Counted from the first letter of the stretch, positions 10,101 through 64,000 are shown. The stretch: 64,000 nt of DNA from an uncultured Gammaproteobacteria bacterium (GCA_947258975.1 CAMYKK010000001.1:86451-150450); one strand, 5' to 3'. Notes: generated from the sequence alone by a model not told the origin. Program-made: numbers and translations.

Positions 10101-10886
10101 ATGCACAAAGATCGTAGTGTTTTAGCATGGCTCAGATGGCCGCTGCGTGCTGTGGCGCTGGTTGTGATACTGCTGCTTGGCCCGTTGGGAGTGCTCGCCT
10201 TTGGCGATTTGGATCTCGAGACGCACTGGAGCGCAGCCAGCCGCGCCAGCAGTGATCAGGCCCCGAATCCCCGCGATGAGCCCGCGGCGCTGATCCAGGT
10301 GTACGGGGCGCGTGCCTATAGTTGGCGGGGTGCATTTGGCATTCATACCTGGATCGCCACCAAGCGCCGTGCCGCCGCGCAGTACACGGTGTATCAAGCG
10401 ATTGGATGGAATTTGTACCGCGGTCGTTCAGTGGTGACCGTGAGCCGCGGCGGGCCGCCCGATCTGCTGTGGTTCAACGCCGAACCCGAGATATTATTGG
10501 AGCGCCGCGGACCCGCCGCGGAGGCGCTTATCGGCCGCATCGAGGCGGCGGTGGCGGCTTACCCCTATGTGCGCCAATACCGCGTGTGGCCGGGGCCCAA
10601 TAGCAACACCTTCACCGCATTTGTCGCGCGGCAGGTTCCCGAATTGGGGCTAGACCTGCCGCCCACCGCGATCGGCAAGGATTACTTGATTGACGGTCAG
10701 CTTATTGGCCGCATGCCCAGCGGTACGGGGTGGCAGGTTTCACTGCATGGTTTATTGGGTATCGGCCTCGGTTGGGAGGAGGGCATCGAGTTCAACATCC
10801 TCGGCCTGTCCGCCGGTATCGACCTCAAGGACCTCGCGTTACGCCTTCCCGGCATCGGGCGGTTCAGCGTGTTTCCCCGTGGCTAA
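10101..10886 (+). CDS. Membrane-anchored protein, DUF3750-like (family recalled from memory)
   Basis: 261 aa with an N-terminal TM helix (LRAVALVVILLLGPLGVLAF). The segment VYGARAYSWRGAFGIHTWIATKR resembles what I recall of DUF3750. Confidence 0.5.
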   Translation: MHKDRSVLAWLRWPLRAVALVVILLLGPLGVLAFGDLDLETHWSAASRASSDQAPNPRDEPAALIQVYGARAYSWRGAFGIHTWIATKRRAAAQYTVYQAIGWNLYRGRSVVTVSRGGPPDLLWFNAEPEILLERRGPAAEALIGRIEAAVAAYPYVRQYRVWPGPNSNTFTAFVARQVPELGLDLPPTAIGKDYLIDGQLIGRMPSGTGWQVSLHGLLGIGLGWEEGIEFNILGLSAGIDLKDLALRLPGIGRFSVFPRG

Positions 10887-10924
10887 CCCGTGCAGTGCGC
10901 AAGCATTCCGGGGGCAACATCGGG

Positions 10925-13141
10925 TTAGCGGAACTGGGTGCCCAACAATAGATAGACACTGTCTTGGCCTCCCTCCGCCACACCGTATCCGGCGTAGAAG
11001 GGACCTAAAATGGTATCCAAACCAAAAAAGACACTGGCCGCGGTCAGCGTTGCGTCGAACTCGATGTCATCTTTGTTTTCGAACACGTTGCCCTGCTGCA
11101 GGGTCCCGCCCCAATATGCCGGGATTGACGCCACGCGGCCGAAGGCCCGCATATACCCGGCGCGCAACAGGACGACATTCTCGCCGTTGAGTGAGTCGTC
11201 GACGAAACCCGGCAGGTCGAACAGCCCACCGAGACGAAACCGGCTTTGAATGGGCGCCTCGCCGTTGTAGGTCGTAAAATACCGGGCTCCCCACAGCAAG
11301 GTATTTTTCCCCCATGATCCGGTGCCGTACATATCCAGCGTCGCCTGGTCGAAGTCCGTATCCGCACCCAGCGAGGTGGACGAGCGACGTATGCCCAGTG
11401 TTCCCAGCACACCGGAGCGAGGAAAGTTGGCGTTATCGAGGGTGTCAAAACGCAGGCGCGCAAACCATTCACCGCTGTCGACGTCTCCTTGTGGAACAGT
11501 CTCGACGCCGATGCGTAGGTCCACGTCCCCGGCGGATCTGGAGACACCGGCCTCGAACTGTCCCCAGGTGCCGAAATCCCGGCCCACCGCCAGGCTGCCA
11601 CCGGCATCGCGAACCCGATTCTGGGCGATGATCTGGCCCTCCTCAAAGGTGTTGAACAGGCGCCGGGTGAAGAACAGGCGTGGCCGGACGAAGTACGGGG
11701 ACCCCACGCCCACGGGTTGGTAGAGGTCGGCCACGAACGTGGGTTCATCGCCCAATTCGGCGATGAACTGCAACTCGCCGTTGAGGCGATTGATGGGCAC
11801 GCGCAGCACGCCGAAACGCAGCGCGAGGCGGTTCTGGTCGGCAGCATCGCTGGAAAATTGCAGACCAAATTGCAGGTAGTTGGGCCCCCACGGTCTTTCT
11901 TGCACGGATATTACAACGCCGGTGCGGCCGTCATCTTTGACCGCGCTGTAACTCACGTTATCGAACACGTCCAGTCCGTAAATCGCGGCCAGATCCTCCT
12001 CGAGCTGTGGTGTATCCAGGGGCTCACCGATCTCCACCCGCAATAGGGAGCGAATGACCTCATCGGCGACGCTGGAATCATTATTGAGGCGTACGAAGTC
12101 GATGATTGGCAACCCGCGTTCACGCGTTTCACGCGCCGCCATGTGATGTGCAAACGCCGTTTCGCTCACAGCCAGCCGTTGCAGCGCCGCTTGGTTGACG
12201 CGTGCCGCTGTGACTCCCATCTCTACGCCCTCTGCCGCCTTGGTGAAATCGCCGGTGGTGATAGACCCGAGATCGGGCACGAGCAGGACATCGTTATCGG
12301 ACAGTGTGGCCAGTTGCGCCTCGGTGTTACCGCGGGTCATGATTCCAGTGAGTTGCAGCACGATGGAAAATACGCTTGCGAGTGCCTCTTTGGGGGCCAA
12401 CGGCGTACTGATATCCACCACGATGGACACGTCGGCGCCCATCTGCCGAACTACATCGACCGGTAGATTATTCGTCACGCCGCCGTCTACCAGCAAGCGC
12501 CCGTCAATCTCCATCGGCGCAAAGAAACCGGGGATCGACATACTGGCGCGAATCGCCGCCGCGAGATCACCCGAAGCGAGTACCGCGGGCTCACCGGTGG
12601 CGATGTCGCTGGCCACCGCACGAAATGGGATGCTCAATTGATCGAAATCGGTGACGCCGGATACCGGCAACGTCAGGTCCTTGAGTTTTAGGTACATCTT
12701 GCGACCTTGGATGAGCCCCCTTCCCAGCTGCAATTTACCGTCTTTGAAACCGACGTTTTTATTGATGAGAAAGAACGCGTCGTCAAATTTACGGTTGGTG
12801 GACAACTTCTCGCGTGGGGCCCGATCGCTGAAGATGTCGTCCCAATCGATCTCGACCAATGCCTTCTCGATCTCGTCCGTGGACATTCCCGACGCGTACA
12901 AACCGCCGATGATGGCGCCCATGCTGGTGCCCGCAATGTAGTCGACGGGTACCCGGAGCCGTTCGAGTTCCTTGAGAATACCGATATGCGCTGCGCCGCG
13001 GGCACCGCCGCCACTCAAGACGAGCCCGATCTTGGGATGTGATCGCTCGCCGGAGAGTCGTTTAGCCGATGGTGCCTGCGCGGCAAGCGCGGTGGTTACC
13101 AGGCTTAATAGGCAGATTATTGCAGTAATCGTCGTCTTCAT
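10925..13141 (-). CDS. Patatin-like phospholipase fused to Omp85/BamA-type beta-barrel (PlpD-like, type Vd autotransporter)
   Basis: Signal peptide MKTTITAIICLLSLVTTALAAQA. Patatin motifs: GLVLSGGGARGAAHIG (oxyanion hole), GTSMG (GxSxG), VDGGV (catalytic Asp). There is a POTRA-like middle region and a C-terminal Gly/aromatic-rich barrel. Confidence 0.85.
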   Translation of the reverse strand: MKTTITAIICLLSLVTTALAAQAPSAKRLSGERSHPKIGLVLSGGGARGAAHIGILKELERLRVPVDYIAGTSMGAIIGGLYASGMSTDEIEKALVEIDWDDIFSDRAPREKLSTNRKFDDAFFLINKNVGFKDGKLQLGRGLIQGRKMYLKLKDLTLPVSGVTDFDQLSIPFRAVASDIATGEPAVLASGDLAAAIRASMSIPGFFAPMEIDGRLLVDGGVTNNLPVDVVRQMGADVSIVVDISTPLAPKEALASVFSIVLQLTGIMTRGNTEAQLATLSDNDVLLVPDLGSITTGDFTKAAEGVEMGVTAARVNQAALQRLAVSETAFAHHMAARETRERGLPIIDFVRLNNDSSVADEVIRSLLRVEIGEPLDTPQLEEDLAAIYGLDVFDNVSYSAVKDDGRTGVVISVQERPWGPNYLQFGLQFSSDAADQNRLALRFGVLRVPINRLNGELQFIAELGDEPTFVADLYQPVGVGSPYFVRPRLFFTRRLFNTFEEGQIIAQNRVRDAGGSLAVGRDFGTWGQFEAGVSRSAGDVDLRIGVETVPQGDVDSGEWFARLRFDTLDNANFPRSGVLGTLGIRRSSTSLGADTDFDQATLDMYGTGSWGKNTLLWGARYFTTYNGEAPIQSRFRLGGLFDLPGFVDDSLNGENVVLLRAGYMRAFGRVASIPAYWGGTLQQGNVFENKDDIEFDATLTAASVFFGLDTILGPFYAGYGVAEGGQDSVYLLLGTQFR

Positions 13142-38367: not shown

Positions 38368-39618
38368 TCAGTCGCGTCCCCCGAGCACGCGCCCCAACCG
38401 CTGGATTGCCACCTGCACCGCCGCCTCCGACTCGGACGCGTAACACAGTCGAAAAAAGCCCGGTTCAGCGATGCGGCACGCCTCTCCGGGCGTGAGGTTG
38501 ATATTCGCCTCGTCCAGGATGCGGCGCCACAGCCGCTGTTCCGCCTCCCATGTCGGCGTGTCGAGGTGTGGGCGCAGGTCGCAGATCAGGAAGAAGCCCG
38601 CCTCGGCGGGCAGGTAGGCGATCGCCGATGCGTCAAGACTCTGCGTCACCCGCTGGTATGCCTGTTTCAAGTCGGTTCGCATCCGCTTGATATAGTCGTC
38701 CACAACCGCCCGGTCCGACACCAGTTGTGAGAGCAGGTATTGTGTGTGCCCCGAACAACCTGACCAGTATGCGAGCTCGCTAACGGCGCGGAGCACGTCG
38801 TCATTGCCGCTGATCAGGACGCCGCAGCGAAGCCCGCTTGCTCCGAAGTCCTTACTGAAGCCCCAAACGATATGTACGCGCGCGCCGAGTTCCGTGCGCA
38901 AGCTCGCGGCGCTCACGAAGGGACGATCACCGAACACAGAGAGCGCGTAGATCTCGTCGAAGACGACGTGAAAGCCCTTGCCCTCGGCCCACGCGAGAAC
39001 ATCCTGGAGTTCCGCGCGCGAATACACGCGGCCAAGCGGGTTGTCGGGTGTGGTAAAGAGCAGCGTGCCTACCGGGACGTCCGCATTGGCCGTCGCCTCG
39101 TCGAGTAGCGCCGGTGTGAGCCGGAAATCGTTGCGGCTGCTGCACTCAACCGGCACGATCGAGAGGCCATCGCGGATCTCAAGGTCGGGCCAAAATCCGG
39201 CGTAGCTCGGCGTCGGAACGAGCACCCCTGCCCCCGGATCGGCGATGACGTAGAACAAGATCTCCAGCACGGAACCCGCTCCGGCGAGGACCGCGATGCG
39301 CGCGGGATCGACAGCGCGGCCCAGGAAGCTGCGGCTCATGAAGGCGGCGAGGTTCCGGCGGAACGCCAAGTTGCCGGTCACGTCGTCGTAGCCGAGTACC
39401 GCGCTGGGAACGTCTCGGTAGCGGTCCAGACATCTGACGAGCCGCTCGGCCATGCGCTTGTTCTCGGCAATGCAGAGTGAGATGTATCCGTCGGGGCGCG
39501 AGTCGGGGTCCCAGGGCCGGTGAACGCGTTCGAAGTGCTCCGCGATATAGCGCGGGCGGGGCGGCGCGTCGACCAGCTTTCGGCCGCGGCGCGAGAGTGG
39601 GGACGTGGGCGAGCTCAC
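38368..39618 (-). CDS. Class I/II PLP-dependent aminotransferase-fold enzyme, ACC-synthase-like subgroup
   Basis: GYISLCIAENKRM (compare LAENQL of ACC synthases), the PLP-lysine motif GFSKDFGASGLRCG, and C-terminal PGEACRIAEPGFFRLCYA. The GTG start overlaps the upstream stop (GTGA). Confidence 0.85.
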   Translation of the reverse strand: MSSPTSPLSRRGRKLVDAPPRPRYIAEHFERVHRPWDPDSRPDGYISLCIAENKRMAERLVRCLDRYRDVPSAVLGYDDVTGNLAFRRNLAAFMSRSFLGRAVDPARIAVLAGAGSVLEILFYVIADPGAGVLVPTPSYAGFWPDLEIRDGLSIVPVECSSRNDFRLTPALLDEATANADVPVGTLLFTTPDNPLGRVYSRAELQDVLAWAEGKGFHVVFDEIYALSVFGDRPFVSAASLRTELGARVHIVWGFSKDFGASGLRCGVLISGNDDVLRAVSELAYWSGCSGHTQYLLSQLVSDRAVVDDYIKRMRTDLKQAYQRVTQSLDASAIAYLPAEAGFFLICDLRPHLDTPTWEAEQRLWRRILDEANINLTPGEACRIAEPGFFRLCYASESEAAVQVAIQRLGRVLGGRD

Positions 39619-42600
39619 TTGTGCTGGAGCATCTCGAACCCCCGCCAGTCAAAGGGAGGGGCGTTTGCGGCGTAGCGCTTCGCACGCGCGGCGAACAGCG
39701 ATAGGACCGCGTCCTCCGGATCGAGCGCCAGGGCCGCGGTGAAGATCTCGTGGGCCGTGGTGAAGTCGCGGGCGCAGTAGCGCTCCATGGCGATGTGCAG
39801 CCGATCCCGCGTCGACTCTTTTGCAGCGCAGCGTCCGGGGGGCTCGCCGTCGAGTACTTCATAAAGCGGGACGCCCCGCTCTTTGCCCCTGACCGCGACG
39901 CGGTCGACGATGCGCAGGGAGAATTCCTCGGGCGCGCGCAGGCGTTGGTAGGTGCGTTCCCCGATCAGGAACGGCGCATGGTAAAACTTGGTGAGCTGCT
40001 CAATGCGGGAAGCCATGTTGACGCAATCCCCCACCACGGTGCATTGCAGACGATCTTGCGCGCCTACCGTCCCCAGTACCAGTTCGCCGGTGTTCACCCC
40101 CACACCCATCCTCAGGGTAGGGCCTCCGCGTACCGCTGACTCGCGGTTGAGGTCTTCCAGCGCGCGGCACATCTTGATTCCCGCCTGCACCGCCCGGTCG
40201 GCGGACAAACCGAAGAGCGCCATGATCTCGTCGCCGTTATAGGAGTCGACAAACCCCCCGGCTTCGGTGATCGGCTCGATGAGCCGGCTGAACAAGCGAT
40301 TCAACAGTTCAATCACCGCGCGTGCGCCCAGTCGTTCTGCGAGCGGTGTGAAATCGCGCAGGTCTGCGAACATCACCGTCATTTCCCGGGCGACGTACTC
40401 GCCGAGGCCAACTTGCGCAATGTCGTGGTGGCCCAGGCTCTCGAGGAACTGGCTGGGCACGAAACGCTGCTGTGCCTCGGCCAGGCGCAGTTGGTCCGCG
40501 AAGAGCTGGGCGTTCTCGATTGAGATCGACGCCTGCGCCGAGAGCAGATTGATGATCTCGACACGCTCTTCGGTGAAGACGCCGGTGGTGAGATTATTCT
40601 CCAAGTAGATCGCCGCCAGAAATTGACCGTGTCGGAGGATCGGAATGCAAAGGACTGACTTTGGTTGGCGCATGACGATGTAAGGGTCCGTTGCGAAGCG
40701 GCCGGACTGTGTGGCGTCGTTCAATACCAGCGCAGTGCCGGTGCGCAGTACGTTATTGACCACCGAGACGGGCAGCAGCGGATCCCCGCCGGGCGCCTGT
40801 GCGGGAATGTTCGCGGCATGCACGGGTCCGTCGCGACCCGCTTCGCCCTGGGCCCGGATCATGAGCTGGTCGCCCTCGCGAACGACGAAGTATCCCTTCT
40901 GGCCGCCCGCATTCTCGAGCACTATTTGTATCGTCGTCATCAGCAGCTTCTCGACGTCGATCTCGCCGGAGATGGCCTGCGAGGCCTTCACTACCGAACT
41001 CATGTCCAACGCAGCCGAGTCCAAGGACCGCGTCATCGTAAAGGAGGTCTGCGTGTCCGGGCCACCACCGCGCGCCGGTACCGGCACGCGCAGCATCTGC
41101 GGGTACTTCCGCTCCAGGTGTTCGACCTTGCGGTGAGCTCCCCAACGGTAGTAGAGGTAGTGAGCCGCGCCCAGGTAACCCTCGGCTGCCTTCGACAAAC
41201 CGGCGCTCTCGAGGTATTTGGCGGCCAACTCGTTGGCCAGGGCCTCATCGCGACGGAACTCGTTGTTTTTAGCGGCGGCGATCGCCTGCTCGTATCGTTG
41301 CAGTGCATCCGGCATCCGGCCCATCAGCCGGGCCAGCTCGGCCCGCATGATGAGACGCAGGTGATCGAAGTTTTCCGGACAATTGTCGGCCCATATCGTC
41401 ATCTGGTTCAGGTGCGCCTCTAATACTCCGAGTGTCTTCTGTTGTTGCGTGTCCTTCATGTCCGCATAGAGGGCGGCGCGCGTCAGGAAGGCAACCAGGT
41501 GGAACCGCACGAGCTGAGGCAGCGACATGGAGGATGCGACGAGCTCGTCCTGGCGCCGCACGTGCTCGAGTGCGCCTTGGAAGTCGTCGTAGAAGAAGTG
41601 GATTTCCGCTTTATAGATATGGTAGTTGGCGATACCGGTCATGAATTTCCGCCGCCGCATTCCCTCGACGCACCGTGTTTCGTCGAAGGAGGCGTCGTTC
41701 ATCGAGTACAACTCCTCTGTCAATCCCTGGAAATTGAGCTGCAACTGCAGGAACAAGGTCCCCGAGTCCAGTGAGTCCTGATACTCGCAGTCTCTGACGA
41801 CAGCAAGATTCTTGCGATGCTCTTGAGAGGCCGTTTCCAGATCGAGTGTTGGGTCCCAAATAATGCAGTCCTGTGCGCTGTAGGCTAGGTACAGCAGATC
41901 TCCGGACTGGTACCCTGCTTCAATTCCTTTGCGAAACCACGGGGTCATACTGGACCAGCTCTTGCTCCAGTGATGGATGAACATCGTGTAAACGTAGATG
42001 ATCCTCGATTTGAGTGCGACGTCGTTGAAGCGCTCGTTCATCGCCACTGCAAGCCGGCCGTACTCAAAGCCCAGCGCCGGTTGGTTCAGGGCGCCGCACA
42101 GGAGCATCCCGTAGGCCGCGTAGGCGAACGCGGATTCGGGGCTGTTGCCGTGACGCAGAGAGAGGTTAACGGATTTCAAAACGAGGTACGGAAACAGGTC
42201 TCCACTCCCCGACAGGAACGCCGCGGGGAAGATCTCCATCAGCAGGCGAATCGCGACCCGTGCCTGCGGGTCTACGAGCCCGGGTGCGTCGATCAGTTTG
42301 GGGATGGAACGCTCCTGGAGATTCTTCTCGACCTGCGCGAACTCGTCGGCGACGGCATCGGAACCGGGATTTGCGAGCAGGTCGATACCCAGCAGCGACA
42401 AGCCGGCGATCGCCGCCTGAATGGACTCGCGCATTTTCCCGATGGTCGCATATTGGCGCGTACGGGCCGACAGAATCTCCGCTTTCGCCAATGGCGTCTG
42501 TGCGTGTTCGAGCATCGTCTCTGTCCACGCTTCGGCTTCTTTGTAGTCTCCGGTCAGATACGCGCACTGCTGGACCTCCTTGCTGAGCGCCAGCATGAGA

Positions 42601-45008
42601 TCGTGGTCGTTGTCCCACGCGTCCCCAGGGAGCACCTGTTGGCCGATGCGAAGAAAGTCGAGTGCGGAGCCATACGCCGAGGATTGCCGGGTCTTGACTC
42701 CGGCCTGGAGATTGAGGTCGGCAAGCTCGCGGCGCTCGGTGGGATCCTCGATCAGTTCACGTCCCGCGTTCAGATGTCCCACGATGGCAATGAGCCGCTC
42801 TGCGATTTCTTCTTGCGTGCCATGGCGTTGCATCAGCCGCCCGACCGACAGGTGGACCGCCTGTTTCCGGTGGCTATCGATGAGTGCATAGGCGGCCTGC
42901 TGAACGCGGTCGTGCTGAAACTTATAGAGAGGTATCACCGCGTCAGATCCGTCTCCACCCGCGGCGTCCGGGCTGACGAACTTATAGCTTTCATTCAGGG
43001 GAATAACCATATTCCGCTTGAGTGCCTCATGAAGCGCCGCGCTGGTCTGTGCCATCGATCGCTCGTGGATGATCGACAGGGTCCTGAGGTCGAAGGTATT
43101 GCCGATGCACGCGGCGAGCTGCAGCACCTGCTGTGTGGAATCGCGCAGGCGACGCAGGTTCGCAACCATGAACTCGACGACGTTGTCCCCCACCTCTGCG
43201 CGCCTCACCGCGTCCATGTCCCAGTCCCAACGCCCACACTCCGGGTCAAAGCCGATCGCCGCGTCCTCGTTCAGGCTTTTGAGCAGTTCCTTGATGAAGA
43301 ACGGGTTGCCCTGGGCCTTATCGTAGAGGAGTTCGCTGAGGCACCGCGAGCGTTCCGGATCGCTGTGCAGGGCGTCGGCGATCAGTCGATCGACGGCGGC
43401 CCGCCCCAAGGGCCGCAGGGAGAGTTTGGTGAATTCCCGTGTCTTCTGTATCTGGTCCAAAGCCATGCGCAGCGGATGGCTTGCGTCGACCGCGTTGCTG
43501 CGGTAGGTGCCGATGACGAGAAGGTGGTGCAACTCGCGTGCCGTGACCAGGCGCTGAATCAGGTTCAGCGTGGGGATGTCGCTCCACTGGAGGTCGTCCA
43601 TGAAGATGACCAGCGGGTGCGGCTCGGTCGCGAACACCTTGACGAAGTTCAGGAAAACGATCTGGAAACGGTTCTGCGCCTCTGTGGGCGGCAGCTCCGG
43701 AACGCGCGGCTGCGCCCCGATCACGAGCGCGAGTTCGGGTATCAGGTCGATAAGCAGTTGCCCATTGGGCCCCAGGGCTGCTACCAGGGCCTCGCGCCAG
43801 CGGTCCAGTTGCTCCTTGGGTTCGCAGAGTAGCTGCTGCATGAGGCCGCGAAACGCGAGCGCGAATGCACTGTAGGCGGCGCTGCGCTGGAATTGGTCGA
43901 ATTTTCCCTGGATCAGGTAGCCCTGCTCGCGAACGATCGACTTGCCGAGCTCGTTGACCAGCGCCGACTTGCCGACGCCCGCATACCCCGATACCAGGCA
44001 CAGTTCCGTCGCACCATGGGCCACGTCGTCGAACCGGGCAACGAGTTGCCCCAGCTCCTCCTCGCGGCCGTAGAGTTGTTGCGGGATTTGGAACTTGCGT
44101 GAAATGTCCTTTTGCCCCAAGGCAAAGGGTGTGACCGACCCTGTATGCGCGCGCTCGTCGCGACAACGTTCAAGATCGGCGATCAGGCCATAGGTGCTCT
44201 GGTAGCGGTCCTCAGCGTTCTTGGCCATGAGCTTCGAGATGATCCGTGAGAGCGGCTCGGGTATGTCGTCGACGACCGCATGTGCCGCGGGTGCCGGATG
44301 GCTGATGTGGCGATGCACCCACTCGAGCGCGTTGTCGGCGGAGAAGGGGAGTTCGCCGGTGAGCAGCTCGTAAAGTGTGACACCCAACGAGTAGTAGTCC
44401 GAGCGGTAATCCAGGTCGCGATTCATCCGCCCCGTCTGCTCCGGCGAGATATAGGGCAGCGAGCCCTCCAGACGTTTCGACAGCGTGATGCTTTGACGCT
44501 CGCGGGAGAGCTCCGAGGAGATGCCGAAGTCGATCAGACGCAGCCCGCCCGTTTCCGGGTCGATCAGCACGTTCCGTGGCGTGACGTCCTTGTGCACGAC
44601 GTCTAGCTCGTGCAACCGGCCGAGTACCTGCGCGAGGCGAACGGCGATCGAGAACACAAGGTCGAGGGGCAGCGGTTTACGATTACGCTGCGCCATTAGG
44701 TCGGCCAATGAGAGGCCGAACGGCTCCATCTCAATGGCCAGGTTGTCCGCGCCATAACTCACGAGCGAATGCACGCGAATGACTCCGTCGACGCTCAATT
44801 TGTTCGCGATCTGGAACTCGCGCCGGATCTCCGCCACGTCCTGCTTGCGTGGGTACTGGGCACGCAACGTCTTGAGCATAACTTCCTCGCCGTCCACCTT
44901 GCGCACGGCCCGGTAGATGACGCGCGGGCCCGATTCGTGGACGACGTCTTCGAGGTCGAACCCCGGAATGCTCACCGCTGTGACACGCGTGGCGCGGACC
45001 GCTTTCAT
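39615..45008 (-). CDS. 1797-aa multidomain signalling protein: Ser/Thr kinase + P-loop (AAA_16/STAND-type) NTPase + helical repeats + GAF + class III nucleotidyl cyclase + short TPR-like tail
   Basis: Kinase: VMLK, HKDVTPRNVLI, DFG, SPE. NTPase: Walker A GYAGVGKSALV, Walker B LVIFMDDLQW. GAF: ..VLCIPILRHGQFLAAIYLEN. Cyclase: VMFADLRDFTPLAE, GDEIMALFG, RMGVGVNTGELVLGTVG, VVGDCVNMASRIE. Confidence 0.85.
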   Translation of the reverse strand: MKAVRATRVTAVSIPGFDLEDVVHESGPRVIYRAVRKVDGEEVMLKTLRAQYPRKQDVAEIRREFQIANKLSVDGVIRVHSLVSYGADNLAIEMEPFGLSLADLMAQRNRKPLPLDLVFSIAVRLAQVLGRLHELDVVHKDVTPRNVLIDPETGGLRLIDFGISSELSRERQSITLSKRLEGSLPYISPEQTGRMNRDLDYRSDYYSLGVTLYELLTGELPFSADNALEWVHRHISHPAPAAHAVVDDIPEPLSRIISKLMAKNAEDRYQSTYGLIADLERCRDERAHTGSVTPFALGQKDISRKFQIPQQLYGREEELGQLVARFDDVAHGATELCLVSGYAGVGKSALVNELGKSIVREQGYLIQGKFDQFQRSAAYSAFALAFRGLMQQLLCEPKEQLDRWREALVAALGPNGQLLIDLIPELALVIGAQPRVPELPPTEAQNRFQIVFLNFVKVFATEPHPLVIFMDDLQWSDIPTLNLIQRLVTARELHHLLVIGTYRSNAVDASHPLRMALDQIQKTREFTKLSLRPLGRAAVDRLIADALHSDPERSRCLSELLYDKAQGNPFFIKELLKSLNEDAAIGFDPECGRWDWDMDAVRRAEVGDNVVEFMVANLRRLRDSTQQVLQLAACIGNTFDLRTLSIIHERSMAQTSAALHEALKRNMVIPLNESYKFVSPDAAGGDGSDAVIPLYKFQHDRVQQAAYALIDSHRKQAVHLSVGRLMQRHGTQEEIAERLIAIVGHLNAGRELIEDPTERRELADLNLQAGVKTRQSSAYGSALDFLRIGQQVLPGDAWDNDHDLMLALSKEVQQCAYLTGDYKEAEAWTETMLEHAQTPLAKAEILSARTRQYATIGKMRESIQAAIAGLSLLGIDLLANPGSDAVADEFAQVEKNLQERSIPKLIDAPGLVDPQARVAIRLLMEIFPAAFLSGSGDLFPYLVLKSVNLSLRHGNSPESAFAYAAYGMLLCGALNQPALGFEYGRLAVAMNERFNDVALKSRIIYVYTMFIHHWSKSWSSMTPWFRKGIEAGYQSGDLLYLAYSAQDCIIWDPTLDLETASQEHRKNLAVVRDCEYQDSLDSGTLFLQLQLNFQGLTEELYSMNDASFDETRCVEGMRRRKFMTGIANYHIYKAEIHFFYDDFQGALEHVRRQDELVASSMSLPQLVRFHLVAFLTRAALYADMKDTQQQKTLGVLEAHLNQMTIWADNCPENFDHLRLIMRAELARLMGRMPDALQRYEQAIAAAKNNEFRRDEALANELAAKYLESAGLSKAAEGYLGAAHYLYYRWGAHRKVEHLERKYPQMLRVPVPARGGGPDTQTSFTMTRSLDSAALDMSSVVKASQAISGEIDVEKLLMTTIQIVLENAGGQKGYFVVREGDQLMIRAQGEAGRDGPVHAANIPAQAPGGDPLLPVSVVNNVLRTGTALVLNDATQSGRFATDPYIVMRQPKSVLCIPILRHGQFLAAIYLENNLTTGVFTEERVEIINLLSAQASISIENAQLFADQLRLAEAQQRFVPSQFLESLGHHDIAQVGLGEYVAREMTVMFADLRDFTPLAERLGARAVIELLNRLFSRLIEPITEAGGFVDSYNGDEIMALFGLSADRAVQAGIKMCRALEDLNRESAVRGGPTLRMGVGVNTGELVLGTVGAQDRLQCTVVGDCVNMASRIEQLTKFYHAPFLIGERTYQRLRAPEEFSLRIVDRVAVRGKERGVPLYEVLDGEPPGRCAAKESTRDRLHIAMERYCARDFTTAHEIFTAALALDPEDAVLSLFAARAKRYAANAPPFDWRGFEMLQHK

Positions 45009-53640: not shown

Positions 53641-55599
53641 TTATCGGGACGCACGCCGCGGGATCGACTGCTTGAGGCTTTTTCGCTTATACATCGCCTT
53701 GTCGGCGCGCAAGATCAGTTCATCAATAGACACGATGTTTGTTGTATTATGAGTTGAGAATCCGACGCTGATCGACAGGGTATAATTTTTGTCGCTTGCC
53801 GAGTTGAACGCTACAGCGTGTTCCTCAATGTGGCGTATCACCACTTTTTCGACATCTGCTGTCTTTAAGCCCGTCAACAGCACGACGAATTCGTCCCCGC
53901 CGTAACGCGCGATAATATCGGATTCGCGCACAGATCCCTGCAGAATCTGTGCGACCTCCTTGAGCGCCCGATCTCCTTCCGCGTGGCCGAATTTGTCGTT
54001 AATGTGTTTCAGGTTGTCCATGTCGGCGAACAACACAACTATGGGCGAGTTATTGCGGATGGCCATTTTCATCTGTTGCTTCGCCAAAAGATACAATCCT
54101 TGCCGGTTAAATACCCCGGTGAGCGTATCGATGATCGCGGATTCCTCGTATTTCACCGCGTCGGCGCCCCGGTAACCCAGCAACTCGCCGCTCTTGCCGA
54201 GTACCGGTATCCCGCTCGTTGTCAGCCACACGGATTTGCCGTTTTTATGGACGTTGCGGTTGATGAACTCGCGGAAAGCCCCCTTTGATGCAAACACCTT
54301 GAACGCCTCCTGCTTTAATGTTTCGCGGTCATCGGGATGGAAGAAATCATAAAAGTACCTGTTCAGCATTTCTTCGGATGTATAACCCAGAATCTTCGTG
54401 ATTGTTGGGCTGGCGTAGGTGTATTTGCCGTTGGCATCGACCTCCCAGATCCATTCATTCGCATTCTCTGCGATGTCAATGAATCGCCGTTCACTGACCC
54501 GCAACGCAGATTCAGACATTTTCCTGATGAGACCCAAGCGCGACAGATAAACCGCGCCGGGGACCAGAAGCAAGAATGCGAAGATAGCTATGGGCAGGAA
54601 CGCGCGTAATAGTTTTTGTCGCCCGGCGCTGAGGATATCCGGGGCAACTTGAGCCACCACCGTCCAGTAGTAGTCCTCGGCACCCGCTGCCGCGTTACCG
54701 GATGCGGAGAGGCTATCCGAGATCGCAGCGAACCGCCGCGCTGCCATTAAGGGGTATACGGTAGTGAACGTGAATAGACCGAAGTCGCCCCGAAGTTGCC
54801 CAGATTGATTGGTGGATATTGTCCGCCACGCGTCTGGAAACATGCGTTGGAACGTCTTGTCCCGTCTTTCCTCAAACATGAAGCCCCACTCATCCTCCGG
54901 GGTCGGCCCCTTTAGCCAGTAACCCTGCGCGTTGAGGAGCATGATCAGGCCTGAGCCACGATAGAATTTGTCGAGGTTCTCGAGCAGGTGCGAACCAAAG
55001 TAATTAAGAACCACGATCCCGATCTTATTACCCAGATTATCGAAGACCGGAGTGCCAAAACGGATCAATGGTTTTATGGGCAGTTCTATCTCTCCACGTT
55101 CAATATTCAGGTCCAATGGGGAAACAAATATCTCTCCTCTGTTGAGAACAAAGGTGTCCTTGAAATAATAACGCCCGGCCTTGTTCTGAAGTTTCCCTGT
55201 TGGCACAACGGTTGGGTTGCCATTTTGGTAATTGACACGCACGACCTCCATCCCGGTGTGATCAATAAAGCGTACTTGATCATAGATCTTTCTTCTTCGC
55301 GAAAACGACAGATAGTCAGAAGCCAGATCCTGGGTCTGCTGATCGGTGAGGGTTCCCTCGAGGTTGTTTAACTCGTGGTGTTCAGAGAGGAATATCAGCT
55401 CTGAAACCGCAATATCGAAGTCCGCCGCAACGATATTCTTGATGAGATTTACGTTATTGACCTCATCAGCATCAAGGACAGACTTCTGGCCCTTGAGCTC
55501 GGTGCCATAGATCAATACGGTGATAGCAACAAGCAGCGCTGTGGCAGGCAGGATGATCAGCAATGACCGTTTTACGACCAACCAAGGATCTATTTTCAT
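53641..55599 (-). CDS. Diguanylate cyclase with periplasmic Cache-like sensor, PAS and GGDEF domains
   Basis: Start at the ATG at 55599 (MKIDPWLVVKRSLLIILPATALLV). There are two TM helices flanking a ~270-aa extracytoplasmic region, and a PAS region (FIDIAENANEWIWEVDANGKYTY). The active site is RYGGDEF, with an RESD I-site 5 residues upstream. Confidence 0.9.
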   Translation of the reverse strand: MKIDPWLVVKRSLLIILPATALLVAITVLIYGTELKGQKSVLDADEVNNVNLIKNIVAADFDIAVSELIFLSEHHELNNLEGTLTDQQTQDLASDYLSFSRRRKIYDQVRFIDHTGMEVVRVNYQNGNPTVVPTGKLQNKAGRYYFKDTFVLNRGEIFVSPLDLNIERGEIELPIKPLIRFGTPVFDNLGNKIGIVVLNYFGSHLLENLDKFYRGSGLIMLLNAQGYWLKGPTPEDEWGFMFEERRDKTFQRMFPDAWRTISTNQSGQLRGDFGLFTFTTVYPLMAARRFAAISDSLSASGNAAAGAEDYYWTVVAQVAPDILSAGRQKLLRAFLPIAIFAFLLLVPGAVYLSRLGLIRKMSESALRVSERRFIDIAENANEWIWEVDANGKYTYASPTITKILGYTSEEMLNRYFYDFFHPDDRETLKQEAFKVFASKGAFREFINRNVHKNGKSVWLTTSGIPVLGKSGELLGYRGADAVKYEESAIIDTLTGVFNRQGLYLLAKQQMKMAIRNNSPIVVLFADMDNLKHINDKFGHAEGDRALKEVAQILQGSVRESDIIARYGGDEFVVLLTGLKTADVEKVVIRHIEEHAVAFNSASDKNYTLSISVGFSTHNTTNIVSIDELILRADKAMYKRKSLKQSIPRRASR

Positions 55600-56222
55600 T
55601 TCTATTCCACGATACGCCCGAACTGCTCGCGACAGGAGCGCGAGTCCGCGCAGCATACGGTTAGCGGGTGTCAACTCATGCCGGCTTTCGCCCCACAAAA
55701 ACGGGATACTTTGATTGTTGCGCCGTGATGTGCCGTATACCTATGGCCGCTCCTGATTATGATCAGTATAGGACCGAATGTCGCCGGTAGCCGGGACGCG
55801 GGCTGGATTTCGTCGTATGCCCGACGCATTCAGTCGGACTTTCAAGTGTTAAACGCTGTCCTGCCGAAGAAACAAGATGCCCTCCGAGCGCTGGTTTTTG
55901 TGTCCCCTGTGCCGGTAAATGCGTATCCAACTTCCGGCCGGACGATGCGGGCGGGTCCGCTAGTCGTCGCGCTGCTTATATTGGGGCTCCTCTCAGGCTA
56001 CGGTGTCAGCTGGACGACCCGCAATAATACTCAGCCGGGCTCATCGCCTGCAGGCTTTCACACCCTCGAGTCGTTCCGCAGTTCGGATGGACCCAACGCA
56101 GCGTTGAATCCCGCACGATCGCTCTTAGACTGGCGAACTTCTCTTCGACCTGCCAACCACTTAGATGCGCCTTCAACGTTCGGCGTATATTGCGTTGTCG
56201 TTGCTGTGGACGTCAATCAGGG

Positions 56223-57032: not shown

Positions 57033-58904
<1,872 letters not shown>

Positions 58905-59139
58905 TCATGCTGCGTTGAACAGCACGTCAAACAGGCGCAGGCTTGTCGGTGTTGAATTACCGATTTTGCTGCGAGCGGGAGTTGGACCAATCCGCGGCAA
59001 TATGTCTGCCATTGGAAATCGTCGGTCTTCGCACACCGGATCTTGGGTGCGCCAGTAACTTCTGCCGGAGTATCTTCACGGAGCGATGCGGAGGTACCCC
59101 GGTCAAAGTCAGCGATGAACCTCTGCGCCGGACAGGCTC

Positions 59140-59452
59140 TCAATATTTACTCGGCCAATCCAGCAATCTGAATTCATTTTCGCATGTACCTCCGCCACAC
59201 GGGCATTCCGTCCAAGTTTCATCCGGTGTTATGACAGTACAACAATCTTCTGGATTATTGTAATTAGCCATCAAACAAGCCCCTTTGAGAGGAATATCGA
59301 TATCATTTAAATTCCGGATCATTTTTTTGGCTTCTTGTAAGACTACAGATTGCTTGCTGAATTTCGTCGAAGGCCTTTTTTATCCGCAAGAGAAATATTA
59401 GTTGCCGGAACAAAAAACAAAATTGTACTCAAAGTAAGAAATATCTTATTCA
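59140..59452 (-). pseudogene. Small secreted Cys-rich protein gene split into three frames at two poly-A runs (pseudogene, phase-variable, or homopolymer assembly errors)
   Basis: GGAGG lies 6 nt before the ATG at 59452, giving MNKIFLTLSTILFFVPATNISLA (signal peptide). The frame breaks at an A6 run (~59372) and an A7 run (~59325). Removing one A from each yields a ~103-aa product ending ..NYNNPEDCCTVITPDETWTECPCGGGTCENEFRLLDWPSKY, which is track ORF 59140..59322. Confidence 0.4.
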
Positions 59453-59818
59453 TGGAAATCCTCCGTATCGTGACTACTTGGTTCTTCGAAATAACGGGCG
59501 CCGTTCTCGCCACACGGACGAAACAAACCTGGATTCACTAGTTCGACACCGGTGTGCTCCGGGGTCTACAATACCTTGCGACAAATCCGCTCCGGTCATA
59601 ATGAACGGATGTTGGGTGGTTACATGCTGGACACTGAAAGCGGAGCAATAACTTCACGCATCCGCAATACAATAGGTTTAGGCATTGACATGACCTGTCG
59701 TGGGCGGAATGGTCCTTGGGCTGCCGTTAGTCTGCACAGATCACAAACTGCGCGTCGACGTGCCGAGTGGTATCGCATAAGCCGGGGATAGCGGCGCGCG
59801 CCACACCGGAGGATTGCC

Positions 59819-60769
59819 ATGCCATCACGCACGCCCCTGACCCGCTTGCAATCGATACTCAAGCGCAGCGGCGATCCGGCCCGCCAGGCCGTCGCCATTC
59901 TTGAACTTGCTCCCGATTTGCCGGATGCCGCGATCGATATGATGGACGCCGCACTGGACGGCGCCGATCCGTTGCTACAGGTCGCGATCATGGACGCCTA
60001 CTTCGAAATGACGGGCGACAATTATCACCAACAGGACCTCGAGAGTATTCTTGACAAGGCCCGTAGCATGGGCGACGACGGCGAGCAACTCTACATGGCT
60101 GCCCGCATCGCACTCGGCCATATTACAGGCCTTTCCGCGGATCGGCTCGATGAATGGGGTGACGGTCAGCTGGAGATCACGGCAACCGCGCAGCGACGCC
60201 GCCGGGCGCGGCGGCGCGGTCGACCATCCGTCGTCGACGAGATCACGATCATTATCCATGGGACCTGGGCTGCGGACGGCACGTGGTGGCGGCCGGGCGG
60301 CGACTTCTTCGAGTTCACCAGGACCGAGCTGGGCCGCGATGATCTCTACGGCAAAGCCGACCAATTCAAGTGGTCGGGCAAGAACAAAGACCGCAAGCGC
60401 CGCCAGGCAGGCATCGCCCTCGATAAGTGGTTGCGAGATCATCCGGCCCGCGAGGTCAACGTGTTCGGCCATAGCCATGGCGCTAACGTGGCGATGCTGG
60501 CCACGCACCAGGGCCTTCGCATGGACCGGCTGATTATGCTGAGTCCGCCGGTGCGGCGCGACTATTTCGCGAACTGGAGCAACGTCGGTCAGGCCTATAA
60601 CATCCAGGCGTCCTTCGACCCGGTCGTCGCCATAGCACACGGTGGCCAATGGTTTCGAAACAGCCATGTGATCGAGAAAAAACTGGAAGCCAGCGGACAT
60701 TCTGCGTCGCACGAGCCGCCCGTCTGGCGACGGGAGAAGATCGCGGAATTTGTTTCCATACCCTGGTGA
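59819..60769 (+). CDS. HEAT-like N-terminal region + alpha/beta-hydrolase (lipase/esterase-like) domain
   Basis: GGAGG lies 7 nt upstream of the ATG. The N-terminal helical repeats resemble the next gene. An Arg-rich linker RRRRARRRGR follows, then IIIHGTWAADGTWW.. and the nucleophile elbow GHSHGAN (GxSxG). Confidence 0.6.
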   Translation: MPSRTPLTRLQSILKRSGDPARQAVAILELAPDLPDAAIDMMDAALDGADPLLQVAIMDAYFEMTGDNYHQQDLESILDKARSMGDDGEQLYMAARIALGHITGLSADRLDEWGDGQLEITATAQRRRRARRRGRPSVVDEITIIIHGTWAADGTWWRPGGDFFEFTRTELGRDDLYGKADQFKWSGKNKDRKRRQAGIALDKWLRDHPAREVNVFGHSHGANVAMLATHQGLRMDRLIMLSPPVRRDYFANWSNVGQAYNIQASFDPVVAIAHGGQWFRNSHVIEKKLEASGHSASHEPPVWRREKIAEFVSIPW

Positions 60770-60776
60770 CTGCCCG

Positions 60777-61259
60777 ATGGCGTCGTCGCGTACGACACTA
60801 ATGCAATCCCTCGCAAGCAATAATCGGTATCAGCGCGCAACAGCGGCCATCGAGCTCGGCAAACGCAGGATCCGCCAAGCGCTGCCGGAACTGCGCAGGT
60901 TGACAACCGACAGTGATGATATTGTCGCAATCGCAGCGATGTACGCGTGCTGGGAGCTCGGAGAAGACCTGATCTCGATCGAGCGTATCGTCGCAGCGCT
61001 CGAATCCGACAGCGAGGAAGACGTGCAGCAGGCGGTCGAGACCGTCGGGGCGATCGGCGAGCCCTTCGTTGCAAAACTCGCCCCGCTGTTGATGCAATCA
61101 CCCGACCGGGCCAGGCTCGCGCTAAAGCTTCTGGACGAAATTGGTGGACCGGAGGCTCGGCGGCTGGTTCAATTCATGCGTAGCGACGATCCCGATGTTG
61201 CTGCGCTGGTGCGGGAAATACTCGACGATTGGGAGGACGCGGCGGACGCTGTTCCATGA
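60777..61259 (+). CDS. HEAT-repeat protein
   Basis: 160 aa. Repeated ~30-aa helical units (RATAAIELGKRRIRQALPELRRL.., VQQAVETVGAIGEPFVAKLAPLL.., ALKLLDEIGGPEARRLV..) are typical of PBS-lyase-type HEAT repeats. It begins 7 nt after the upstream stop. Confidence 0.6.
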   Translation: MASSRTTLMQSLASNNRYQRATAAIELGKRRIRQALPELRRLTTDSDDIVAIAAMYACWELGEDLISIERIVAALESDSEEDVQQAVETVGAIGEPFVAKLAPLLMQSPDRARLALKLLDEIGGPEARRLVQFMRSDDPDVAALVREILDDWEDAADAVP

Positions 61260-61855
61260 TGTACGCGAAACGGAGTAGGTGGGGCAAGACCCACATATCG
61301 AACGCGGACGCCGGTGCCTGGCTGTGCGCGCAAGCGCCGAGAACGGTAAAAAAAAGCAGACTGACAATCCGTGCCGCAACCGTCAGGGATCTCGATGCTC
61401 TTGTCACGATCGAGACGGCCTGCTTCGGCGGGATTGGACCGTATCGCAATCATGTGTTCGGCGAATCCCAGTTTCGCTATTATCTGCACCGCGACCACGC
61501 GATCACATTGCTCGTGACGTGTGATGGGACGCCGATCGGCAGTGCCATAGCGACCATCGGCCGCCGCGCTCGATCCGGCAGCGCTAGAATCCTCAGTATC
61601 GCGGTCATCACCGGTGAGCGCCGGCAGGGCCTGGGCAGGCGCCTGCTGCGGCGTTTGGTGCGCGACCTTGCTGCGCGCGGTTGCGAGCGCATATATCTAG
61701 AGGTAGCGGTTCAGGCCGACGCGGCACGGGCGTTTTTCCAGGGCGAGGGTTTCGAGACGGTGCGTCGCCTGCCGGACTATTACGGGCGCTCGATCCACGC
61801 CTGGCGAATGGCGCTTGCAACCGGACGGTGCCGGCGCTCCGGAAACCCAGAGTAA
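61256..61855 (+). CDS. GNAT-family N-acetyltransferase (RimI-like)
   Basis: The ATG at 61256 overlaps the upstream TGA (ATGA). The acetyl-CoA motif is RRQGLGRRLL, and there is a typical C-terminal FFQGEGFETVRRLPDYY. Confidence 0.8.
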   Translation: MMYAKRSRWGKTHISNADAGAWLCAQAPRTVKKSRLTIRAATVRDLDALVTIETACFGGIGPYRNHVFGESQFRYYLHRDHAITLLVTCDGTPIGSAIATIGRRARSGSARILSIAVITGERRQGLGRRLLRRLVRDLAARGCERIYLEVAVQADAARAFFQGEGFETVRRLPDYYGRSIHAWRMALATGRCRRSGNPE

Positions 61856-61872
61856 TCGTTGGAGGTAGCAAG

Positions 61873-64000
61873 ATGCCCGCCAGGAAGAAAAAACAACACA
61901 CCGCGCGCCGCAAGACTAAAAAGACCAGCAAGAAAACCTTCGCACGCCCGCAACCCAAAAAATCGAAGAAGAAGTCATCGAAGACCGCGGTGAAGAAGAC
62001 CGGCGCAAAAACCACGGCACGGAAAAGGCCGTCGGCGAAGAGAGCCGGGCAACCGATGAAGCGGACGAAATCGAAGAAAAGCACATCCGGTGACATTGCC
62101 AATGGGCTGATGGTCACATTGTCCAACGACGCTGGCGCGTCAGCCACGATCCCTTGCGACGAGCGTCTGCAGGAACTGGCGATGCGCTGGCGCTACGTGC
62201 TTTCGCGCCGCCTGCGCTGGAAACGCAGCGCACGCATGAAAATGCGCGCGCGCGCGCACGACGATCTCATCAACCTGCTATCCTCCGACACAACCCGCGC
62301 GGCGGAAGTTCTCGGCGATGGGCAGGTCGTTGAGATCCGAGTCCCGTATCGCAACGAGCGCAGTGGCTGGGAGGGCCGCGTTGCGCCTTGGGAATTCCTG
62401 ATCAGCGCCACGGCCAGCGGTTTGGGGAACCAGAAACCACTGACGATCGTGCGGCATCTCGACACCAACCGGGTACCCCTGCCGCCGCTCGGGGCCCCCA
62501 AAGTACTCTATGTGCAGTGCGCCCCCGGCGTCCTGGCCGAACACTACGAGTTTACCAGTGAGCGCAGCGCACTGGAGCGCCTGTTCCCCGGCGCCGTCGA
62601 ACCGTGCATCAACCCGACGATCGCCACGCTCCGCCACGAGATCACCCGGCGTCAGCCGAATGTCATCCATCTCGCCGGAATCGATAACATTCAAGCAAAG
62701 GAATTGCTGCAGGACGAGGGCAATCTGCCTGTTGACTGGTTCGAGTCGAAGGAACAGGACGGCATCGTATTCGCCACCGAGGAGTCGCGCTCCACCAGTC
62801 CCGAAGTCGGAGCAGACGGCCAAATGCCGCTGGGTATCGCGCCGATCGACGCACAAACGCTGGCCCAAGTTCTGAACTCGGGCGACTCGCCACTGCATCT
62901 AGTCATGGCCAACGTGTATCACTCGGCGGCGCGCATTTGCGCGCTTGCCGTTGCCGAAGGCGCCGGGCTCGCGCTCGGATTTCAAGATACGGTCAAGGAC
63001 TCGCTGGCGGAGATTTTTCTGCGTGAATTTTATTCGCATTGGCACACCAGCTATGACCCGTTGCCGGCGTTTGTCAGTGCGCTGGACAATGCCCGCGCGT
63101 CGGTCGCATTGTCCGGCACGGGATTCGTTTTGTGGAGTGCGCAATCGTTGCTGGACGGCGCCGTGAAGCGCATTCGCGACAGCCGGGAGTCGCGGGATCC
63201 CGACCGCCAAAGGATGTTGTCGCTGGATGACGACGATGGGGACTACTCCAAATGGTTCAGTGTCGATGTGCAGATACGCGATCGACTAAATTATTCGCTG
63301 CTGCACAACGACAGCGGGGGCTTGTTCGAAAAGCTGGAGTTCCGCAAGGAAAAAGAGGGCGTGCTTCCGGACGTCGGTGTCGAAGTCGTGCTGTATCTCG
63401 GATCCGAGAGTCACCCGTACAGCGCCAAATTCACGCTGACCGAGTTTTTGACGCCGGTTGACGATCAAATCAAGGTGCCGCTTACTTCGTCGATCATTCG
63501 CACCGTTGCCGAGCCCGTGCGCACCAGCCTCTATGTGCGCATTACGGTCGGCGAGAAGGTCGTATGTCAGGAGACGCACCGCGTCACGCTGCTACCGGCA
63601 GACGAATGGAAGGATACGGATGCCGACCGCATCTGGCTGCCCTCCTTCGTGCTGCCGCGCGATCCCGCGGTCGAACTGATCATTGACCGTGCGCAGAAAC
63701 ATCTAATCACGCTCGCGGATGATCACACGCGTGGCTTTGACGGTTATCAGAGTATCGACCCGGATGATCCGGAATCACTGGCCGATGTCGACCTGCAGGT
63801 GCAGGCCATCTGGGCGGCCGTGGTCAGCGATTTCGGCATCCGCTACATCAATCCGCCGCCAAGCTACTCGCGTCTCGGGCAACGCCTGCGCACGCCGACA
63901 CAAATCGTGCGCGGCGGACGAGGCACGTGCATCGATCTCGCTTTGCTGTTGTCGGCCTGTCTTGAATACATAGAGGTCTATCCGGTGATTTTTCTGCTGG
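61873..64000 (+). CDS. Large multidomain protein, 3'-partial (>709 aa): Lys/Arg-rich tail + CHAT-like region without catalytic dyad + transglutaminase-like Cys core
   Basis: Not in the supplied ORF track because there is no stop before the window end. My own translation from the ATG at 61873 (GGAGG 7 nt upstream) has no stop through nt 63999. It begins MPARKKKQHTARRKTKKTSKK.., contains ..NVIHLAGID..LHLVMANVYHSAA..VKDSLAEIFLREFYSHW.., and ends ..GGRGTCIDLALLLSACLEYIEVYPVIFLL. Confidence 0.7.
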   Translation, partial: MPARKKKQHTARRKTKKTSKKTFARPQPKKSKKKSSKTAVKKTGAKTTARKRPSAKRAGQPMKRTKSKKSTSGDIANGLMVTLSNDAGASATIPCDERLQELAMRWRYVLSRRLRWKRSARMKMRARAHDDLINLLSSDTTRAAEVLGDGQVVEIRVPYRNERSGWEGRVAPWEFLISATASGLGNQKPLTIVRHLDTNRVPLPPLGAPKVLYVQCAPGVLAEHYEFTSERSALERLFPGAVEPCINPTIATLRHEITRRQPNVIHLAGIDNIQAKELLQDEGNLPVDWFESKEQDGIVFATEESRSTSPEVGADGQMPLGIAPIDAQTLAQVLNSGDSPLHLVMANVYHSAARICALAVAEGAGLALGFQDTVKDSLAEIFLREFYSHWHTSYDPLPAFVSALDNARASVALSGTGFVLWSAQSLLDGAVKRIRDSRESRDPDRQRMLSLDDDDGDYSKWFSVDVQIRDRLNYSLLHNDSGGLFEKLEFRKEKEGVLPDVGVEVVLYLGSESHPYSAKFTLTEFLTPVDDQIKVPLTSSIIRTVAEPVRTSLYVRITVGEKVVCQETHRVTLLPADEWKDTDADRIWLPSFVLPRDPAVELIIDRAQKHLITLADDHTRGFDGYQSIDPDDPESLADVDLQVQAIWAAVVSDFGIRYINPPPSYSRLGQRLRTPTQIVRGGRGTCIDLALLLSACLEYIEVYPVIFLL

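Follow-up and report, generated by a model that had tools for sequence, protein, structure and literature searches.

Among the components that keep recurring in predicted conflict systems of bacteria are alpha/beta-hydrolases, transglutaminase-like peptidases and domains of the caspase type (PMC8195603). Caspase-fold domains of the CHAT type are found in SAVED-CHAT of the cyclic oligonucleotide-based antiphage signalling system (CBASS) and type III CRISPR (structure 8tl0) and in Csx29, the TPR-CHAT protein of Craspase. ProA (NCBIfam NF058533, 'anti-phage protein ProA') is a giant protein related to Hhe that combines DUF4011, a superfamily 1 (SF1) helicase, a restriction endonuclease (REase) domain and DUF3320. 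The genes described here encode relatives of parts of these proteins. They come from a 64,000-nt stretch of DNA (the window) of an uncultured Gammaproteobacteria bacterium (GCA_947258975.1, CAMYKK010000001.1:86451-150450), in which four genes, g1 to g4, run from position 59819 to the 3′ end at 64000. A first-pass annotation, made from the sequence alone, had proposed that the four form one unit, a scaffold plus three catalytic chemistries. Comparison with homologous loci points instead to a conserved core of g4 and a serine-hydrolase partner, the window holding what appears to be one clade's version of an undescribed two-gene module.

Domains of g4 and comparison with described proteins

At full length g4 (P0001) has 836 aa, of which the window cuts off only the last 127 (the end of the gene is expected at ~64383); the first-pass annotation had called it a giant, which overstates its size. 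An AlphaFold2 (AF2) model of the protein had a pLDDT of 77 and a pTM of 0.73. The first 77 residues (61873-62103, + strand) form a disordered polycationic tail containing 23 Lys, 8 Arg and 1 Asp/Glu (pLDDT <50), and K/R-rich tails of variable length are present in most g4 homologues.

An N-terminal subdomain and a CHAT-like (caspase-fold) domain follow in the model at residues ~80-425 (62110-63147, +). In Foldseek this region best matched SAVED-CHAT 8tl0 (E 1.9e-8, probability 1.0) and also Csx29, separase and DdvA; the g4 profile matched 8tl0 with E 6.8e-6, which identifies the caspase-like CHAT fold, and the score with Pfam CHAT (PF12770) was 18.0 bits (E 0.002), short of the gathering score of 24 bits. 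The fold is thus shared with SAVED-CHAT and Csx29, but the catalytic residues are not: a hidden Markov model alignment to 8tl0 put the CHAT His at g4 I270 and the Cys at Y349. Among 175 family members, the sample for all residue counts on g4 given here, position 270 is V/F/I/L/M/C in 171, His not being among the six commonest residues listed, and position 349 is Cys in 5. As the His/Cys dyad is missing, the CHAT domain of g4 more probably has a scaffolding or regulatory role than a proteolytic one. It differs from SAVED-CHAT and Csx29 also in the absence of any SAVED, TPR or CRISPR component and in the presence of an additional, transglutaminase-like catalytic domain. The polycationic tail, the caspase-like fold and the transglutaminase-type Cys core named by the first-pass annotation were all supported.

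The former CHAT active site (window ~62668-62925) contains near-invariant residues of another kind, H266 (175/175), D271 (168/175), N347 (156/175) and S351 (168/175), which may line a pocket for a ligand or make up a different catalytic centre.

Residues ~462-573 (63256-63591, +) form a beta-sandwich domain according to the AF2 secondary structure, with matches of the UNC119 type and the TG2 N-terminal type; the region common to ProA starts here. The transglutaminase-like domain follows at residues 598-815, residues 598-709 falling within the window (63664-64000, +). Its Cys686 (codon 63928-63930) is therefore included, whereas His712 (codon expected at ~64006) and Glu776 lie beyond the window. 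Cys686 and His712 are invariant (175/175 each) and Glu776 is found in 173/175. In the AF2 model the three are placed at a helix start, in a strand and at a strand end, the canonical triad order of TG2, BTLCP-type peptidases and PNGase, and as in TG2 the core is preceded by a beta-sandwich. Unlike in TG2-type enzymes the acidic residue is Glu, and two invariant loops, WLPSFVLPRD and YINPPPSY..QRLR, are specific to the g4 family and ProA. The Foldseek match of the core to TG2 (6kzb/4pyg) was weak (E ~3e-3, probability 0.57-0.72) and none of the Pfam transglutaminase models gave a significant score with g4 (best DUF553, E 0.2).

A further relationship is to ProA, whose N-terminal ~330 residues (beta-sandwich and transglutaminase-like) are homologous to g4 residues ~484-830 (E 4.6e-38); Cys, His and Glu are kept in the alignment with ProA residues 166-370. 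However, the rest of the ProA architecture, that is DUF4011, the SF1 helicase (AAA_11/AAA_12), the MTES_1575 nuclease and DUF3320, is absent from g4. With NF058533, g4 residues 484-708 scored 130.4 bits against a cut-off of 1500, covering model positions 11-226 of 1903. A genuine ProA of 2221 aa from a Pseudomonas aeruginosa plasmid (locus L166) scored 2372 bits and has an N-domain without annotation, DUF4011, the SF1 helicase, the MTES_1575 nuclease and DUF3320. The score and the absent domains rule out the identification of g4 as ProA, and what the two have in common is an N-terminal accessory domain.

In L166 the corresponding stretch, 7506-8900 (ProA residues ~43-400), has no Pfam annotation and is homologous to the g4 beta-sandwich and transglutaminase-like domain. 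Proteins with a ProA-type N-terminus are encoded on 79 plasmid records; among the rows listed, the annotation of most names DUF3320 or DUF4011. A human faecal contig of 11 kb, recorded without annotation as 'Bacteriophage sp.' and thus putatively from a phage, codes at 10461-11120 (MT836269.1) for a segment with 29% identity to g4 residues 528-743 (E 2e-16), which is the transglutaminase-like domain of the ProA type; the viral structure library and phage tblastn gave nothing else of relevance.

Conserved partners of g4

An exhaustive profile search at E <= 1e-30 found 967 representatives of the g4 family (50%-identity clusters). The best 150 relatives have 578-980 aa and nearly all of them match most of the 770-position profile; they therefore have the same architecture as g4. 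In a scan of 185,579 species genomes 226 loci were located (~0.1%), spread over at least eight phyla (Pseudomonadota, Verrucomicrobiota, Acidobacteriota, Gemmatimonadota, Planctomycetota, Eisenbacteria, Myxococcota and Chloroflexota), and the hosts are mostly soil and sediment bacteria. A metagenome scan added 315 further matches.

Removal of near-identical loci left 134, the neighbours of which were counted by tblastn, downstream in the 110 with at least 1 kb of 3′ sequence and upstream in the 94 with at least 1.6 kb of 5′ sequence. A DUF7379 serine hydrolase lies directly 3′ of g4, on the same strand, in 94/110 loci, and the median gap between the two is -4 nt in gene calls made in this analysis. 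Isolates of Pelomonas and Albitalea (L078, L079, L055) are examples of bacteria with the g4-DUF7379 pair. The DUF7379 proteins have an N-domain of their own and then a basic linker, and they retain HGTFS, S220 (in HSRGG; L001 numbering), D390 and H423. In a further 6/110 loci the slot after g4 holds a protein of 511 aa with an HExxH motif, and DUF7379 is absent there. Neither was found in 10/110 loci, of which 3 have g1 and g2. The latter two genes are present in 6 of the 94 loci covered upstream, all in the clade whose g4 has 47% or more identity with that of the window, and they co-occur in every locus carrying either. No other conserved neighbours of g4 were seen among the loci examined.

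The HExxH loci are L013 (12516-14051), L014, L026, L085, L092 and L093. The protein, of ~510 aa with the motif HEVGHALLD, has no match in Pfam, PDB or PADLOC; it is possibly an alternative metallopeptidase effector.

The gene order g1-g2-g4-DUF7379 was found in L001, L007 and L170. In L170, g1, g2, g4 (819 aa) and DUF7379 (443 aa, 8-nt overlap) complete the operon and there is no GNAT gene such as g3. The closest relative, L165, has a g4 84% identical to that of the window (85% nucleotide identity over 2.9 kb), preceded by the end of g2 and a 199-aa GNAT (73% identical) and followed by the start of a DUF7379 gene that overlaps g4 by 8 nt. A GNAT was found only in the window and L165; the six loci (of the 94) that carry g1 and g2 are without one, and so is L170.

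Since look-ups of the exact products of g1, g2, g3 and full-length g4 returned nothing and no copy of the window's contig was found in scans of the genome and metagenome collections (best matches 65% and 42% identical), the gene downstream of g4 has to be taken from its relatives. From the gene orders of L165 and L170, a DUF7379 gene very probably follows g4 just past base 64000, and the GNAT gene appears to be a recent, lineage-specific insertion between g2 and g4. The first-pass annotation had thus correctly anticipated that more genes follow, as they do in L165 and in the 94 loci with DUF7379. Its view of the four genes as a conserved unit does not hold: co-conservation extends to g1, g2 and g4 but not to the GNAT, g1 and g2 are confined to one clade, and the DUF7379 gene falls outside the window. 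The conserved core is g4 with its serine-hydrolase partner.

No described system matches the operon, as the first-pass annotation had also stated. PADLOC-DB v2.0.0 gave no match for g1, g3, g4, DUF7379 or the HExxH protein and only weak generic HEAT matches for g2, and the sole NCBIfam match, to ProA, is the partial one discussed above. In the papers searched for ProA, Prometheus and DUF7379 no description of the ProA architecture, of DUF7379 or of the g4 module was found; that ProA belongs to the Prometheus system (named in PMC13078230) is a conjecture.

The first gene of the operon, g1 (59819-60769, +), encodes 316 aa: a HEAT-like N-domain (aa 1-104), an Arg-rich linker and a lid-less alpha/beta serine hydrolase (aa 139-316). 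In the AF2 model (pLDDT 87, pTM 0.86) the N-domain has six helices at residues 6-103, and residues 106-132, which include the RRRRARRRGR sequence, form a disordered linker. By structure matching the hydrolase domain is similar to cutinases and esterases (probability 1.0) and to YdeN-like hydrolases, and HGT147-149, S219 (in HSHG), D267 and H294 are invariant across 35 homologues; Ser elbow, acid/His triad and fold together establish an alpha/beta-hydrolase behind an Arg-rich linker, as first annotated. The serine-hydrolase fold, the HGT oxyanion motif and the (H)SxG elbow are shared with DUF7379 (PF24096), with lipases of the Tle type of the type VI secretion system (T6SS) and with PGAP1-like lipases. 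In sequence, however, g1 shows no significant similarity to DUF7379 (E 0.17), and the individual Pfam models all remained below their cut-offs (Tle3 E 0.056, Lipase_3 E 0.024). The idea that the g1 hydrolase is a displaced DUF7379 is therefore not supported.

The second gene, g2 (60777-61259, +), encodes a small all-helical HEAT-repeat protein of 160 aa (Pfam HEAT_2, E 2.7e-10; 40.8 bits, cut-off 27.7), which places it in the HEAT family. The N-domain of g1 has no direct Pfam match; its family profile matched alphaRep with E 4e-5, and matches to alphaRep/HEAT structures ranged from E 4e-5 to 3e-3. The HEAT-like repeats said to be common to g1 and g2 proved real but distant: hhalign related the g1 N-domain to g2 with a probability of 76% (E 2e-5), and pairwise BLAST found no similarity between them.

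The acetyltransferase assignment of g3 (61256-61855, +; 199 aa) was borne out by Pfam Acetyltransf_1 (PF00583; E 3e-16; 60.1 bits, cut-off 20.7), which puts it in the GNAT superfamily. The protein is RimI-like but below the equivalog threshold, TIGR01575 giving 59.2 bits where 86.4 is the cut-off.

The layout of the genes was confirmed by the open reading frame (ORF) listing and direct reading. All four lie on the + strand, with a 7-nt gap between g1 and g2, an ATGA overlap of g2 and g3 (61256-61259) and a 17-nt gap between g3 and g4. A GGAGG sits 8 nt before the ATG of g1, and another is included in the 17-nt gap ahead of g4, which begins at 61873. A Kyte-Doolittle scan found no transmembrane (TM)-like segments, in agreement with the first-pass annotation, its sole hydrophobic peak being the buried core helix of the g4 transglutaminase-like domain, and the operon proteins have no signal peptides. 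These observations support an operon-like unit of cytoplasmic proteins.

Possible function of the module

The link of the g4 module to defence is circumstantial. As with CHAT defence proteases, the effector or adaptor proteins that accompany g4 are encoded by separate genes of its operon, and homologues of these partner genes occur either fused to genuine CHAT domains or next to them. On the Ruegeria pomeroyi DSS-3 megaplasmid NC_006569.1 (L169, 6404-13208) a 966-aa DUF7379-CHAT fusion (DUF7379 7.5e-42, CHAT 2.8e-53) lies directly upstream of a Septu pair, SIR2-PtuA (with an N-terminal SIR2) and PtuB (6e-47, 1e-66), beside an IS5 element; this may be a variant system of three genes, and its host is cultured and amenable to genetics. 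In L167 (8184-17596) a g1-g2 pair is followed by a 2076-aa protein with a CHAT domain (9e-30) and a C-terminal AAA_5/nSTAND3-like ATPase. HG and C are retained in this CHAT domain, which is apparently active. In L168 the g1-g2 pair stands alone. The module of L001 is flanked by a KAP NTPase (QatA/PifA-like, 2e-22) and by a Tle1-like hydrolase, a DUF2235 gene that comes after DUF7379 there and is absent from the other loci.

Unannotated genes of 265 aa and 255 aa flank the g1-g2 pair of L167, and a Transposase_mut gene lies upstream.

Tentatively, the module is best explained as a new CHAT-type conflict module with hydrolase effectors, acting in anti-phage defence or regulated cell suicide; this is a genuine possibility, if somewhat short of probable. 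It is suggested by the tight operon, the strong synteny, the intact catalytic residues of g1, DUF7379 and the g4 core and the CHAT domain without its dyad, together with the DUF7379-CHAT/Septu and CHAT-ATPase associations, the homology to ProA, the patchy spread and the KAP and Tle1-like neighbours in L001. Since DUF7379 or the HExxH protein occupies one and the same slot, effector swapping is also indicated. Of the first-pass proposal, the cytoplasmic operon therefore stands and a conflict role remains the best supported, but not as one four-gene unit of a scaffold and three chemistries.

In the window's lineage the genes would then be ordered g1 (HEAT-hydrolase), g2 (HEAT), the inserted GNAT, g4 and the DUF7379 hydrolase. 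The central sensor or regulator would be g4: its CHAT fold, having lost protease chemistry, would now serve for assembly or as a ligand-binding scaffold, and the Cys-His-Glu centre would provide the active chemistry, as a cysteine peptidase, transamidase or deamidase. The effectors would be lipase/esterase-like serine hydrolases, DUF7379 and, in this clade, also g1. The layout of g1 and DUF7379, with an adaptor, a basic disordered linker and a hydrolase, suggests regulated release, and the hydrolases might be kept inactive until released or activated by g4, for instance by being cut within the Arg-rich linker. Through the related HEAT-like domains, g2 could serve as a HEAT adaptor for g1 or inhibit it. 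The Lys-rich tail may tether g4 to a polyanion such as DNA, RNA or an acidic membrane, and the lineage-specific GNAT may tune this tail by acetylation.

A bolder form of the same proposal is that g4/DUF7379, to which g1-g2 would be an addition, represents a new and widespread immune or programmed-death family in which a dead CHAT domain couples a transglutaminase-like enzyme to lipase-type zymogens activated via their Arg-rich linkers, and that the same module is the regulatory or sensing head of ProA. This is distinctly unlikely.

If the conflict explanation were true, an unrecognised and fairly common system would be added to the catalogue of bacterial immunity, with the unusual logic of a pseudo-protease scaffold and a transglutaminase-like centre controlling lipase-type effectors, and both Pfam DUF7379 and the unannotated N-terminus of ProA would be given a function.

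Several observations weigh against this explanation. PADLOC has no model for g1, g3, g4 or DUF7379. The G+C content at third codon positions (GC3) of g1-g4 is 0.68-0.74 and matches that of the adjacent recQ (0.70), so that composition does not point to recent transfer. Some g1 homologues are without the Arg-rich linker, and activation by cleavage, the roles given to g2 and the tail and the target of the GNAT are inferred. Enrichment in defence islands, raised in the first-pass annotation, was not demonstrated, because a census of 130 genes flanking ~35 loci turned up mainly housekeeping genes of diverse kinds, and the PADLOC matches among them were all generic.

A housekeeping function is the foremost alternative. 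The module would then be a cytoplasmic pair of a transglutaminase-like modifying enzyme (cross-linking, deamidation or peptidase) and esterases/lipases with a substrate of the cell's own: this might be a protein bearing lipid or acyl groups, granules of a storage polymer or, in membrane turnover, the membrane. The Lys-rich tail would provide localisation. The flanking genes belong to ordinary metabolism and signalling and vary from locus to locus, the composition is native, PADLOC gives no matches, and a stable function in the cell would agree with the size of the family (967 representatives) and its uniform architecture. On the other hand, the family occurs in only ~0.1% of species genomes, scattered over many phyla, its downstream slot is swapped between DUF7379 and the HExxH protein, and g1-g2 are gained and lost modularly. 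Moreover, all detectable domain relatives and fusion partners (ProA, SAVED-CHAT, CHAT-ATPase, the Septu neighbour) are conflict-associated. A housekeeping role is unlikely, though it keeps a fair claim to attention. If true, it would define a new conserved enzyme pair, and under either explanation the g4 family is large, uniform and uncharacterised.

It is very unlikely that the genes form a toxin-immunity or secreted-effector cassette, in which g1, DUF7379 and the Tle1-like protein would be T6SS Tle-type phospholipase toxins, with g2 conferring immunity or acting as a chaperone and g4 in an accessory or delivery role. The weak, sub-cut-off matches of g1 to Tle3 and Lipase_3 would fit such a cassette, as would the Tle1-like DUF2235 gene after DUF7379 in L001 and the solitary g1-g2 pair of L168, which resembles a toxin-antitoxin pair. 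But signal peptides and TM segments are absent, genes for Hcp, VgrG, PAAR or any other part of a T6SS are missing from the annotated flanks inspected, the Tle matches of g1 are far under the gathering scores and the Tle1-like gene occurs in L001 only.

That the four genes are merely adjacent, or that g4 is a plain member of the ProA (Prometheus-type) family, is scarcely credible and largely refuted by synteny and domain comparison: the GNAT is indeed not co-conserved past the closest relative and NCBIfam does report a ProA match for g4, but the g1-g2-g4-DUF7379 order and spacing recur in several distinct metagenome-assembled genomes, and the ProA match is partial (130 vs 1500 bits), with the ProA domains absent from g4.

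Surroundings of the operon in the window

A consensus scan found a putative promoter-like site, TCGACA-18-TACAAT (10/12 matches), at 59543-59572 on the + strand, ~250 nt 5′ of g1 and at the edge of an AT-rich islet; terminator-like (intrinsic) sites were not found on the + strand inside the operon. The islet (59000-59750) lies between recQ and the operon and has a GC content of 0.47 as against 0.61 for the operon. Scans of it for a tRNA, an Rfam family or flanking repeats found none. It contains two small minus-strand ORFs, at 59140-59322 and 59343-59513: in one, an internal start yields the signal-peptide-like MNKIFLTLSTILFFVPATNISLA, and the other is a 60-aa Cys-rich peptide with 6 Cys.

Further upstream, the minus strand encodes a complete RecQ helicase (57033-58904; DEAD, Helicase_C, RecQ_Zn_bind, RQC and HRDC) and a sensor-PAS-GGDEF diguanylate cyclase (53641-55698), both of which seem to belong to the ordinary chromosomal background. 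A STAND-type signalling giant is encoded at 39615-45008 on the minus strand, ~15 kb upstream of the operon; it is a protein of 1797 aa with a Ser/Thr kinase, an AAA_16/nSTAND6-like NTPase, TPR, GAF and an adenylate/guanylate cyclase domain.

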